A stretch of 64,000 nt of DNA, taken from the NCBI GenBank assembly GCA_043822105.1, contig JBDRCD010000015.1, forward strand, positions 16,443 to 80,442. Reading direction: 5' to 3'. The position numbers are program-made. This document shows positions 27,001-30,000 of this stretch, in pieces. This DNA comes from an archaeon. GTDB taxonomy: Archaea; Nanobdellota; Nanobdellia; Woesearchaeales; GCA-2686295. Position 1 is the first letter of the stretch. Each line of letters opens with the position of its first letter.

Positions 27001-30000
27001 TTGTTGATGAGAAAAAAGCTCTGGAAATACTAGGCAGATCAACAAAAGAGTATCAAAAACAAATGTTGCTTTTGGCCCCTCTTGTAAGTGATTTTACAAG
27101 TCACATTCCTAAAAGAAGAGAAAGAAAACTTCACATTGGACTTTTTTCTTATTCCAGAAAAACAAATGGAGTGATTCTACCAAGAGCAATACCTTTCTGT
27201 GCAAGTTTATACTCTCTTGGTTTACCACCAGAACTTCTTGGTCTGAACGCACTTAAAGAAAAAGACTTTGAGTTCTTAAGAACAATTTACCCAAACATAG
27301 ATGAAGATATGAAAGATTCATTGCAGTTCGTCAACTCTGCTAACTTTGGTTTTTTCCCTCGTGAAATAATTAAAAAGCTAAAACCAGTTATAGAAAGATT
27401 TAACTTTGAAATTGATGAAAAACACAAGAAGATTTCACAAATAATTCTGGAGGATTATAACAAGAAAAACTTTGTTTCTTTGAGTGAAAATATTAACAGG
27501 GCAGGATCAATAAGGGGATTTTTAGGGTGATAGAATGATTGGGATAATAAAAGAATTATCAAACCCTAAAGTTTTTCCTGAAAAACCCTTAGATGTTAAA
27601 ATTATTCAGACACACATTTCAGTAATCTGTTTGACCGGGAAATACGCTTACAAATTTAAGAAGCACGTTAATTTTGGATTTCTTGATTTCTCCACACTTG
27701 AAAAAAGAAAGTTCTACTGCGAAGAAGAACTGAGGCTTAACAGAAGACTATCACCGGAAATATATCTTGAAATGGTTGAACTTCGAGAAAATAATGGTAT
27801 TTTTTCAATCAATGGAAAAGGAAAACTAGTTGATTATGGCATAAAGATGAAAGAATTCAGTCAGGAAAAAATAATTACAAAACTAGTTCAAAAGAATCTT
27901 TTGACATCAGAGCAAATAAAACAAATCACAGATTTATTGGTTAATTTTTACAAAAAAGCAAAGACCAATGATAAGATTTCAAAATATGGCTCTGTAAAAT
28001 TATTTAAGATTAACACTGATGAAAACTTTGAACAAACAAAGTCCATGATTGGAAAAACAATTTCAAAAGGACAGTTTGAATTAATAGAAAAAGAAACTAA
28101 TGAATTCTACAAAATAAACTCTTGGTTGTTTGAAAAAAGAGTCAAAGATGGCATGATAAAAGAGTGTCATGGCGATCTGCACACAGGAAACATGTTTCTG
28201 GATGGCAATAGGATTAAGATTTTTGACTGCATAGAATTTAATGAGCGATTCAAGAATTCAGATGTTGCAGCAGACATAGCTTTTCTTTCAATGGATATGG
28301 ATTTTCACGGAAAGGAAGAGCTTTCAAAAGAACTTATAATAAATTATGTCAAAAAAAGTGGTGACTGGGAACTTCTGAAAGTTTTGAACTTCTACAAATG
28401 TTATAGAGCATATGTTCGAGGAAAAGTAACAGGATTTTTGCTAAATGACAAAAATGTTCCTGAAAACGAAAAGAAGAAAATAACTGCGACTGCAAAGAAC
28501 TATTTTACATTGGCAGAAAGATATGCCAAAGAGATAAATTATCGTTACATTGAATTCAAAAAACCAGTTGTAATAATGACATCAGGATTTTCTGCAACAG
28601 GAAAAAGCTTTATCACAAAATGGTTCCGTAAGTTTTTTGAAATAGAATCCTTATCAACTGATATTATAAGAAAAGAATTATTTAATATTCCGCTTGAAGA
28701 AAAAACAAGGCATGGTCTTGGAGAAGGAATATATTCCCCTGAAAATGTTAAAAAAGTCTATGATGAACTATTTTTAAGATGTAAGAACCTTGTTTCAGAA
28801 GGTAAAAACTGCTTGTTGGATGCAGTGTTTATCAAAAGAGCTTTGAGAGAAAGAGGGATGAAAACAGCAATGGATGCGAATGCAGAATTCTTGATATTAA
28901 ACACTGTTGCAGAAGACAAGAATATAAAATTCCGGCTGGCAAAGAAAGCAAAGAGCAAAGATGATCCAAGCGATGCTACATGGAAAGTATATCTTAAGCA
29001 AAAAGAGAACTGGGAAGAATTCTCAGATGAAGAAAAAAAACATGCTCTGAAAATTGATGGAAATACTTTTTATTGCTATGAAGAAGCATATGATAAAATA
29101 ATAGAACGATTAAAGGAAAATATAAAATGAATGTTTTTTTGAGAAGATACATGGAACTAGGAGAAGAATTTGACCCAAAAGAGATTGAACTAAGAAAATC
29201 TCTGCGAATAAATACTTTGAAGATTCCTGAAAAAGAACTTCTGGAACGACTGAACAAGAAATCTGTTAAACTTCAAAGGATAGCTTTTCTAAAACACGGG
29301 TTTTTCTATGAAGCAATATTTTCAATGGGTGCAACGCCCGAGTATCTTCAAGGATATTATTATCTTCAGGAAGCAGCAAGTCAAATACCTTCAGAAGTTC
29401 TAAATCCGAAAGCAGGTGAGATGGTTCTGGATATGTCTGCAGCCCCAGGTAGCAAAACAACCCAGATGTCTGCTCAGATGGGCAATAAAGGCACTTTAGT
29501 GGCAATTGACAATAATATTCACAGACTAGAGTCATTGAGAAGCAATATTGAAAGGCTAGGAGTTGAAAATGTTACAATTTTCAGAAAAGATGCTCGATTT
29601 GTAGATGATCTTAATTTGAAGTTTGACAAAGTGTTGTTTGATGCTCCCTGCTCAGGTAATTTCACAGATGATAAGAACTGGTTTGAACAAAGAGATTTGC
29701 AGGGAATAAAAGAAAGAGCAAGACTGCAAAGGGAAATTCTGAAAACAGCCGTAAGAGTTCTTAAAAAAGGAGGAGTTCTGGTTTATTCAACCTGTACATT
29801 GGAACCAGAAGAAAATGAACTAAACATTGATTGGCTACTGAAGAAGTATGAAAATTTAACTTTAGAAGAAACAGGTGTTTCCATTGGTGATGGTGGCTTG
29901 ACAAAAGTCTTTGGAGAACAATTAAATCCTGAAATAAAGAAATGCAAACGTCTTTGGCCGCACAAAACAGGAACACAAGGATTTTTCATAGCAAAACTTA

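Follow-up and report, generated by a model that had tools for sequence, protein, structure and literature searches.

A two-kinase protein of the COG2187+COG0645 family encoded by a DPANN-type archaeon, and its possible acceptor

Which molecule does a protein with two kinase domains of different folds phosphorylate, and do the two domains serve one process? The question is raised by a gene in a 64,000-nucleotide (64-kb) stretch of archaeal contig JBDRCD010000015.1 (assembly GCA_043822105.1, positions 16,443 to 80,442 of the forward strand; henceforth the window), which belongs to a DPANN-type archaeon of the Woesearchaeales. The original prediction for this gene described a single open reading frame (ORF) joining an aminoglycoside phosphotransferase (APH)/choline-kinase-like domain to a P-loop kinase domain, and called its product an uncharacterised two-kinase protein. 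The two-kinase architecture is right, but the protein is one more member of a large annotated family that is already widespread and catalogued.

At exactly the predicted place, ORF calling returned a single uninterrupted, ATG-started frame for 531 residues, far longer than chance would give, whose translation contains the three motifs that had been quoted for it, HGDLHTGN, IFDCIEF and GFSATGKS (Table 1). The original prediction had raised the possibility that an assembly frameshift joins two genes, and naturally split versions in some lineages, together with the unusual divergence of the C-terminal half of this protein, could be read as signs of such an assembly or sequencing artefact or of a decaying pseudogene. 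This reading is excluded by the unbroken frame, by an identical 531-residue protein independently deposited at NCBI ('MAG: AAA family ATPase [archaeon]') and by thousands of homologues in which fusions of about 530 residues dominate, those of the closest relatives (69% and 57% identity, on several contigs) among them. An AlphaFold2 model built on 50 homologues (mean pLDDT 93.8, pTM 0.91, no disordered segment) is confident across the interdomain linker, and the core catalytic residues are kept. The fusion is real, and we regard an artefact as virtually out of the question.

Two predicted kinase sites in one polypeptide

An alignment of 74 full-length members, drawn from archaea and at least 10 bacterial phyla and including annotated proteobacterial and Streptomyces proteins, points to two different and complete ATP-phosphotransferase sites in the one polypeptide: an APH-fold site with K40, E65, D214, N219 and D231, and a P-loop site with K357, S358, D376-x-x-R379 and D429. 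The Lys and Asp residues at the heart of both sites (K40, D214, D231, K357 and D376) are all present in the window protein, and the catalytic residues of the two sites are invariant across the 74 members. Both halves had been predicted to be catalytically intact, which agrees with these residues; three other positions in the C-terminal half are substituted.

The N-terminal half has the eukaryotic-like-kinase fold with an HxDxxxxN catalytic loop and a DFG-like Asp. Invariant in it are T26, K40, K42, R58, E65, N69, R202, G213, D214, D231, E234 and D243, and the family motifs QTHIS, YK.KK, E..LN, HGDLHxG[NH] and FDCIEFN all occur at aligned positions in the window protein. At position 219, 36 of the 74 sequences have Asn and 32 have His; the window protein carries the canonical Asn of the HxDxxxxN loop. 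The HGDLHxxH variant, found mostly in bacterial members, is unusual for this kinase fold. A set of family-specific basic residues lies outside the ATP motifs: R58 and R202 in every sequence, R295 in 73, K297 in 69, R238 in 60, and position 240, which is Arg in 67 sequences and Lys here. The family-specific motif NTDENFEQT is a candidate acceptor-binding site.

Within its fold, the N-terminal domain is a strongly diverged branch, since a profile of the family run against all PDB sequences found no APH-fold chain; the family has no solved structure, and a search of PDB with the single protein gave chance-level matches only. The match to Pfam APH (PF01636) stays below threshold (22.2 bits against a cut-off of 23.2) and covers residues 194-272 alone, while the NCBIfam models APH_3p (18.6 against 205) and GntI (22.5 against 357) fall far short of their cut-offs. 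The nearest structures, with Z scores in brackets, are mycobacterial maltokinase (5jy7, 19.3), 5-methylthioribose kinase (2olc, 19.0), a putative APH (3dxp, 19.0), glucosamine kinase (6hwj, 18.6), APH(4) (18.5), a choline/ethanolamine-kinase family member (3dxq, 18.4) and homoserine kinase II (2ppq, 18.3), all at merely 9-16% identity. The family thus differs from the named kinases of this fold, among them Pep2 (5jy7), MtnK (2olc, 2pyw), the actinobacterial glucosamine kinase (6hwj), APH(4)/APH(9), choline/ethanolamine kinases and homoserine kinase II, both in this low identity and sub-threshold Pfam match and in motifs of its own (QTHIS, PVNFGFLDFSTLEKRK, NTDENFEQT, EFNxRFR and YKCYRAYVRGK); it has, moreover, an obligate P-loop partner, which none of them has.

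The C-terminal half is recognised by Pfam AAA_33 (PF13671) over residues 346-494 (E=1.6e-16, 61.3 bits against a cut-off of 27). G356, K357, D376, R379, K380 and Y400 are invariant in the alignment, and R438 is conserved in 69 of 74 sequences. With AAA_33-type kinases such as gluconate kinase (1knq), PSTK (3a4l), Clostridium thermocellum Pnkp (4gp6, 4jt2), the 6-phosphofructo-2-kinase (6PF2K) domain of PFKFB (1bif, 5htk) and adenosine 5'-phosphosulfate (APS) kinase, to which it is 13-17% identical, it shares the Walker A pattern GxxxxGK[ST] (GFSATGKS), D376-I-I-R379-K380 and D429. We take DIIRK to be the motif of P-loop kinases of the polynucleotide kinase (PNK)/PSTK type, such as T4 Pnk and PSTK. 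The closest structures are PSTK (3a4l, 17.6), gluconate kinase (1knq, 17.5), 6PF2K (1bif, 17.3), the APS kinase domain (1x6v, 16.5), the Pnkp kinase (4gp6, 16.5) and Kti12 (6qp0, 16.2); the family profile found only P-loop kinases in PDB, the PFKFB kinase domain being the best (E=2e-7). The C-terminal half had been described as gluconate-kinase/zeta-toxin/PNK-like. The Walker A motif and the fold likeness to gluconate kinase and Pnkp hold, but there is no Zeta_toxin (PF06414) match at E<=0.01 in the window protein.

Unlike in other AAA_33 kinases, the lid Arg is replaced by Lys and two more near-invariant positions differ. In place of the Gly found at position 354 in 71 of 74 sequences, the window protein has Ala; in place of the Thr or Ser found at position 431 in 57, it has Val; and at position 471, the place of the lid Arg that in AAA_33 kinases contacts the transferred phosphate, it alone has Lys and the other 73 have Arg, a conservative change. 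Identity among other members is 45% for the C-terminal and 57% for the N-terminal half; between the window protein and its two closest relatives it is 78% and 71% in the N-terminal half against 53% and 34% in the C-terminal half. Because the core catalytic residues remain, the P-loop site is probably active but fast-evolving in this DPANN lineage.

Two further matches were set aside. A role as a zeta-toxin/PezT-type UDP-N-acetylglucosamine kinase was rejected, as the Pfam match is absent and the window protein has no antitoxin partner; relatives show faint precomputed Zeta_toxin matches overlapping AAA_33, and PezT appeared at E=0.032 in the profile search. A Pfam Peptidase_M54 match at residues 128-211 (27916-28167; 23.8 against 24.4 bits) is probably spurious, and BLASTP against a real archaemetzincin found nothing. 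The relative P0058 carries the same precomputed match. In six loci, mostly of Chloroflexota (including L012 3686-4222, L020 5430-5963 and L067 5092-5979), a real archaemetzincin gene stands upstream of the kinase at a distance of one to five genes.

Table 1. Positions in the window of the two-kinase gene, its domains and motifs, and the two flanking genes; counts refer to the 74-member alignment
Feature	Position	Strand	Conservation or basis
Whole two-kinase gene, 531 aa; stop codon 29128-29130	27535..29130	+	ORF, homologues, AlphaFold2 model
N-terminal APH/choline-kinase-fold (eukaryotic-like kinase) domain, aa 1-335, COG2187	27535..28539	+	
YAYKFKK, beta-3 ATP-anchoring lysine region (K40, K42, K43)	27643..27663	+	K40, K42 invariant, 74/74
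CEEELRLN, alpha-C helix, E65 (salt bridge to K40) and N69	27718..27741	+	both invariant, 74/74
NTDENFEQT, family-specific helical-lobe motif	28012..28038	+	E163 68/74, N164 67/74, Q167 63/74
HGDLHTGN, aa 212-219, catalytic (Brenner) loop; D214 catalytic base, N219 Mg ligand	28168..28191	+	G213, D214 invariant
IFDCIEF, aa 229-235, DFG-equivalent Mg-binding D231, and E234	28219..28239	+	both invariant, 74/74
C-terminal AAA_33 P-loop kinase domain, aa 344-531, COG0645	28564..29127	+	
GFSATGKS, aa 351-358, Walker A (P-loop), K357 and S358	28585..28608	+	G356, K357 invariant, 74/74
DIIRK, Asp-x-x-Arg-Lys motif; D376 candidate general base, R379, K380	28660..28674	+	all three invariant, 74/74
LLDAVF, Walker-B-like strand, D429; family consensus DAT[FN]	28813..28830	+	D429 72/74
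Lid region FRLAKKAKSKDDPSDATWKVY, K471 replacing near-invariant lid Arg	28930..28992	+	Arg 73/74
ATGA, kinase stop overlapping methyltransferase ATG by 4 bp	29127..29130	+	sequence and ORFs
Upstream gene, archaeal-type phosphoenolpyruvate carboxylase, ending 4 nt from the kinase ATG	26052..27530	+	PEPcase_2 E=3e-177; TIGR02751
Downstream gene, Nop2/RsmB-type 5-methylcytosine RNA methyltransferase	29127..30011	+	nop2p TIGR00446, E=2.4e-87

Spread of the family and pairing of its domains

That the 531-residue protein is a genuine member of the COG2187+COG0645 two-kinase family is, in our judgement, very nearly certain. When 5.8 billion proteins were searched and 8000 candidates scored, all 8000 were significant. 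The best 120 are 485-613 residues long and match the query over 90-100% of its length at 41-100% identity; among them, DPANN/Nanoarchaeota proteins stand at 57-69% and Thermoplasmatota proteins at 44-48%. Archaeal and bacterial members are about 40% identical over 530 residues, and the subgroup from anaerobes and archaea is 38-57% identical internally. With one genome counted per species, we found essentially full-length members (32-50% identity) at 588 loci at least, in more than 10 bacterial phyla as well as Thermoplasmatota and DPANN; the lineages include Chloroflexota, Syntrophales, other Desulfobacterota, Cyanobacteria, Nitrospirae, Acidobacteriota, Acidimicrobiia, Cloacimonadia, Aminicenantes and WOR-3. 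Searches with tblastn against coding sequences bearing the family's RefSeq product name gave collinear matches (26-30% identity) that cover 85-96% of the query at E 1e-46 to 3e-64 in Paraburkholderia, Sinorhizobium, Leisingera and others; overall, full-length homologues named in RefSeq fall at E 1e-40 to 1e-64. The N-terminal 335 residues alone recover family members at E values down to 8e-120 and, among 1.84 billion representatives, 2896 clusters at 50% identity with E<=1e-30 or 7426 with E<=1e-10. With thousands of sequence clusters, the family is among the larger 'known unknowns' in prokaryotes.

Collinear full-length homologues at JGI are named 'aminoglycoside phosphotransferase family enzyme/predicted kinase', the names of COG2187 and COG0645. 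NCBIfam has no model for the family, and the N-terminal domain has no dedicated model in Pfam or NCBIfam. The kinase protein matched 0 families in PADLOC and, in PHROGs, reached E=0.0027 and E=0.0063 at best, to families of unknown function; a role in anti-phage defence or as a phage protein finds no supporting match there and was dropped.

The dominant arrangement is a fusion of the N-terminal APH-fold domain (N) to the P-loop domain (P). In three Dehalococcoidia (L067, L070 and L086) and one member of the Aminicenantes (L066) the gene is naturally split, N before P, and each part has a ribosome-binding site and a start of its own; the reversed split order, P then N with a 4-bp overlap, occurs in the Syntrophaceae locus L065, and a convergent pair on opposite strands in L096 (P0125). 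There are also circularly permuted fusions with the P-loop domain first (P0254 and P0266), an N-P-N' protein of 907 residues (P0145) in which the APH-like domain recurs in a diverged form (HGDLRPEH, IIDCLDF), and an N-P fusion extended by two universal stress protein (USP) domains (N-P-USP-USP; P0255, L091 4586-7201). The two domains are kept together in every arrangement and form an obligate pair belonging to one process: that the two kinases act in one process follows from their having been re-joined repeatedly in different orders (Rosetta-stone evidence). Two complete kinase sites are thus retained together through at least five gene arrangements.

Two side observations concern the architectures. 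Besides P0145, P0191 (896 aa) and P0138 (520 aa) represent further architectures in the family, and DUF309 is found fused to an N-domain without a P-loop domain. The permuted P-loop-first fusion P0254 (L097 and L098) lies directly upstream of a PolX-PHP DNA polymerase gene, followed in L098 by an Fpg glycosylase gene, a DNA-repair context seen nowhere else among the loci examined.

What the pair may phosphorylate

Our preferred reading, held tentatively and judged to fall a little short of probable, is that the pair carries out coupled double phosphorylation of one small anionic metabolite. The two phosphoryl transfers would take place on one acceptor, possibly a sugar phosphate or a compound derived from an adenine nucleoside or ribose; one kinase would place a phosphate on a hydroxyl group, and its partner a second one, either on a different hydroxyl or on the first phosphate. 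A small anionic acceptor is favoured because the nearest structures to the N-terminal half are small-molecule, largely sugar, kinases, because the best sequence relative of the P-loop half is a sugar-phosphate kinase, because several basic residues away from the ATP motifs are invariant or nearly so (R58, R202, R238, position 240, R295 and K297), and because several gene contexts involve the metabolism of adenine nucleosides, ribose or S-adenosylmethionine (SAM) by-products, or phosphatases of the 3'-phosphoadenosine 5'-phosphate (pAp) type. An analogy points the same way. TreS-Pep2 couples trehalose synthase to a maltokinase, and 3'-phosphoadenosine 5'-phosphosulfate (PAPS) synthetase couples ATP sulfurylase to APS kinase; in these and in PFKFB, a kinase of one fold is coupled to an enzyme making or consuming its substrate, which suggests that fused or adjacent domains may act on one metabolite. 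Structures 5jy7, 1x6v and 1bif are among the fold matches of the window protein. The analogy is limited in that none of the three systems joins two kinases of different folds and homology extends to one shared domain only. The C-terminal half of the window protein has an APH-fold kinase as its fusion partner, where PFKFB and Pnkp have a phosphatase, Trl1 a ligase and PAPS synthetase a sulfurylase.

The gene contexts come from 79 non-redundant loci, analysed with a simple ORF caller and BLASTP clustering, and from 120 operon-like neighbours scanned against Pfam. An MTAP-type phosphorylase gene lies near the kinase in 17 loci. In Chloroflexota and one member of the Cloacimonadia (7 loci), AhcY and then MetK follow downstream, with an MTAP-type phosphorylase, a MetE-like gene, archaemetzincin and phosphoglucomutase nearby; in Syntrophales, MTAP is at +3, past two genes on the opposite strand. 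A phosphoribosyltransferase gene occupies position -1 in 4 loci, and three or four deltaproteobacterial metagenome-assembled genomes have it there with QueC at +1. Two Desulfobacterota have adenine deaminase at +1, and CysQ adjoins the kinase gene in Sinorhizobium. PHP phosphoesterase neighbours are limited to a few Dehalococcoidia, where in 3 loci the gene directly follows the split N and P genes, and to one lineage with a permuted fusion. Elsewhere the neighbours are of other kinds: DUF401 at -1 and Dph2 at +1 in Thermoplasmatota, and ribosomal protein L25 at -1 in Cyanobacteria.

These contexts and the folds would also fit a more specific proposal, which we consider quite unlikely: an ancient two-step kinase making a doubly phosphorylated metabolite derived from ribose or an adenine nucleoside. 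One candidate route would lead from ribose-1-phosphate or ribose-5-phosphate through ribose-1,5-bisphosphate to phosphoribosyl pyrophosphate, another from a nucleoside through its monophosphate to the nucleoside 3',5'-bisphosphate; the two steps would be divided between the APH-fold domain, which resembles anomeric-sugar kinases, and the P-loop domain, which resembles 6PF2K and APS kinase. Such an enzyme would explain the proximity to MTAP-type phosphorylases, AhcY-MetK, phosphoribosyltransferases, adenine deaminase, a phosphosugar mutase and pAp-type phosphatases (CysQ, PHP), as well as the coupling to ATP-binding USPs in hypoxia and dormancy regulons (DosR, Lxa-like) described below, and would give cells short of energy a way to salvage the by-products of nucleotide and SAM turnover, or to signal through them. 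What speaks for it is lineage-specific contexts and fold resemblance.

Several observations weigh against coupled phosphorylation of a small anionic metabolite. The structural neighbours of the N-terminal half tie within about one Z unit across sugars, antibiotics, choline and homoserine, and so do not discriminate between acceptors, and the P-loop half is equally like enzymes acting on RNA or tRNA (PSTK, Kti12 and Pnkp). No partner gene is universal among the 79 loci; the neighbour contexts are lineage-specific and not phylogenetically independent, and their nucleoside/SAM theme was recognised after the fact. The USP fusions and the neighbouring GAF-PP2C genes would fit protein phosphorylation or a regulatory role equally well. 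In the window protein itself, the C-terminal half has only 31% identity to relatives, against 53% for the N-terminal half, and its substitutions G354A, T/S431V and R471K make activity of the P-loop half less certain.

The resemblance to PSTK, Kti12 and Pnkp raises an alternative, which we consider unlikely, in which the acceptor is RNA, tRNA or a polynucleotide. Here the P-loop domain would act on a nucleic-acid hydroxyl (healing of a 5'-OH end, or a tRNA-bound group); modification of a second group, or recruitment of the substrate, would fall to the APH-like domain, and the protein would have a role in the translation apparatus or in repair. Polynucleotide kinases (T4 Pnk, bacterial Pnkp) share with the window protein the P-loop kinase fold and the Asp-x-x-Arg acceptor motif, and some neighbours are translation or repair genes. 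However, gluconate kinase, 6PF2K and APS kinase match the fold equally well, 6PF2K is the best match in sequence, and the N-terminal half is like small-molecule kinases. The protein has no fused ligase, phosphatase or RNA-binding domain, and Pfam detected no 3'-phosphatase or ligase end-healing domain in it or in the adjacent genes of the window. The translation neighbours vary by lineage, compact genomes are rich in genes of this kind, and their adjacency in DPANN is synteny (see below).

Among annotated cultured bacteria a different and more uniform context prevails, in which kinase genes stand beside USP genes. In Paraburkholderia, Bradyrhizobium, Leisingera and Streptomyces a USP gene is found no more than two genes from the kinase, and in Sinorhizobium three genes away; these loci also hold genes for Hsp20/alpha-crystallin, nitroreductase, Zn-alcohol dehydrogenase, CBS and BON proteins and, in some, cytochrome bd or a P-type ATPase. 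The USP/Hsp20/nitroreductase set parallels the DosR regulon and the low-oxygen (Lxa) locus of Burkholderia (PMC3721108). Bacterial members next to USP genes include those of L088, L089, L093, L094, L095 and L043, and the hypoxia-type gene set occurs in alpha- and betaproteobacteria and Streptomyces; the Amphritea and Variovorax loci lack the USP gene set. In the DPANN-type archaeon we see a housekeeping gene in a compact co-directional array, and in many bacteria a component of hypoxia or dormancy stress modules with USPs.

The one family member that has been studied, Rv2004c of Mycobacterium tuberculosis, belongs to the DosR/DevR dormancy regulon (PMC1950094, PMC5483032) and had the highest growth-inhibition score among DosR genes in a transposon screen (PMC1950094). 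It was described as highly similar to COG2187 with partial similarity to gluconate kinase (PMC1950094), and its gene of 1,497 bp encodes 498 residues. That the window protein is a relative of Rv2004c is accordingly a literature-based assignment, resting on these reports, gene length and COG-derived names. Proteins of the Rv2004c type have the same two-domain architecture and a similar length, and all family motifs are kept in the window protein, which differs in being archaeal (DPANN-type), in lacking a USP/hypoxia-island context and in its diverged P-loop half. Our literature searches found no paper defining a physiological substrate for the family, and no functional study of the domain combination (AAA_33 with APH; PF13671 with PF01636).

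The USP context could mean that the protein is a stress-signalling protein kinase, one or both domains phosphorylating a protein such as a USP, or a nucleotide-sensing regulator working with USPs, whose P-loop domain would serve as an ATP/ADP sensor and control its partner domain in hypoxia or dormancy. We rate this as rather unlikely. It would account for the USP genes in the DosR/Lxa-like sets and the place of Rv2004c in the DosR regulon, for the three USP genes upstream of the kinase in L043, the direct fusion in P0255, the GAF-PP2C phosphatase gene downstream in 5 Geobacterales loci and the fast evolution of the P-loop half in this lineage. Against it, no USP gene occurs in the window (phmmer against all six-frame ORFs) or in archaeal and anaerobe loci other than L043, L056 and L077; the invariance of the catalytic residues in both sites argues against a pure sensor; typical protein kinases are not the leading fold matches; and adjacency to USP genes may reflect co-regulation and not a substrate relation.

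The RefSeq name suggests yet another function, an aminoglycoside (streptomycin) resistance phosphotransferase, and an APH-like fold would suit it. Doddam et al. (2019), as cited in passages of two later texts, reported 'mild phosphotransferase activity' of Rv2004c on streptomycin and low-level resistance (PMC8701281; bioRxiv 10.64898/2026.06.09.731231), and a Pseudomonas homologue was proposed as a streptomycin-resistance determinant by correlation only (PMC9405152). In those citing passages, however, the activity is no more than 'mild' and the resistance low-level. Every APH model failed on the window protein, the family profile retrieves no APH chain from PDB, and an obligate P-loop kinase partner would be superfluous for an APH. 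The target of streptomycin is the bacterial ribosome, and this host is an archaeon. Anaerobes, cyanobacteria and DPANN carry the family on the chromosome; it is ancient and highly conserved and stands in housekeeping or stress contexts, with no resistance or mobile-element context at the loci examined. While the window locus adds little beyond the gene's retention in streamlined DPANN-type archaea, that retention speaks against antibiotic resistance and in favour of a core role in the cell. We infer that aminoglycoside modification is not the physiological role, and a dedicated resistance enzyme is in our view very improbable.

Identifying the substrate would correct the 'aminoglycoside phosphotransferase' label, which is probably misleading and has already been read as marking a resistance determinant (PMC9405152). 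It would also bear on dormancy physiology, because Rv2004c lies in the M. tuberculosis dormancy regulon and homologues lie in hypoxia islands of rhizobia, Burkholderiales and Streptomyces.

The archaeal locus and its surroundings

Family matches and sequence confirm that the kinase gene sits between ppc and a Nop2/Sun-type RNA methyltransferase gene with a 4-bp overlap, as originally predicted. It is part of a co-directional, overlapping array of six genes: NFACT, an aminotransferase, phosphoenolpyruvate carboxylase (PEPC), the kinase, the Nop2-type methyltransferase and a second aminotransferase-fold gene. In the closest relative for which context is available (57% identity, L001-L003), NFACT, the kinase and the methyltransferase are present, and the aminotransferase and PEPC genes are absent. 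The order common to the window and L001 runs from ribonucleotide reductase (RNR) through a GlmS-like gene, NFACT, the kinase and the methyltransferase to UDP-glucose dehydrogenase and an epimerase. Because L001 keeps this long-range order without PEPC and the aminotransferase, the adjacency to ppc and Nop2 is ordinary synteny of related compact DPANN genomes and carries no functional signal. A functional link of the kinase to either gene was therefore rejected, the more so as Thermoplasmatota, Chloroflexota, Syntrophales and cyanobacteria carry different neighbours; the comparison across lineages proposed with the original prediction thus finds these two neighbours to be local to DPANN.

Compared with L001 4901-9981, the window has two insertions in an otherwise collinear order. 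The first (24898-27530), between NFACT and the kinase, holds the aminotransferase and the archaeal PEPC; the second (30049-32436), between the methyltransferase and UDP-glucose dehydrogenase, holds the aminotransferase-fold gene, a 330-residue reverse-strand ORF and a 5S rRNA gene. The reverse-strand ORF (31300-32292, TTG start) has a sub-threshold DUF5685 match (E=3e-4, 20.7 against 26.7 bits) and is wedged between two forward-strand genes, sharing 6 bp with the end of the gene at 30049-31305. The lone 5S rRNA gene (32320-32436, reverse strand; Rfam RF00001, 78.2 bits) lies between this DUF5685-like ORF and the UDP-glucose dehydrogenase gene; Rfam gave no 16S or 23S match above threshold in the window, and ARAGORN found no tRNA gene anywhere in it. 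A scan for sigma-70 promoters and terminators returned 47 sites against about 36 expected; such a bacterial-type scan tells nothing about an AT-rich region of an archaeon.

Three large ORFs, 491, 471 and 534 residues long, lie at 10836-13711 on the forward strand (the first two) and 44652-46256 on the reverse strand and have no Pfam match at E<=1e-5. The forward-strand pair, whose members overlap, is followed by a GT2 glycosyltransferase gene. From about 32574 to 63612 runs a long cluster of the surface-polysaccharide or nonulosonic-acid type. Its first two genes, UDP-glucose dehydrogenase and the epimerase (32574-34831), are named solely by synteny with L001; Pfam-tested members are a flippase, GDP-mannose 4,6-dehydratase, a DegT aminotransferase, NeuB, GT4 glycosyltransferases, an asparagine-synthase-like amidotransferase, a carbamoyltransferase and an HldE-like gene. 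The last of these (56491-57927) encodes a PfkB kinase-cytidylyltransferase fusion and is thus another bifunctional kinase fusion in the window.

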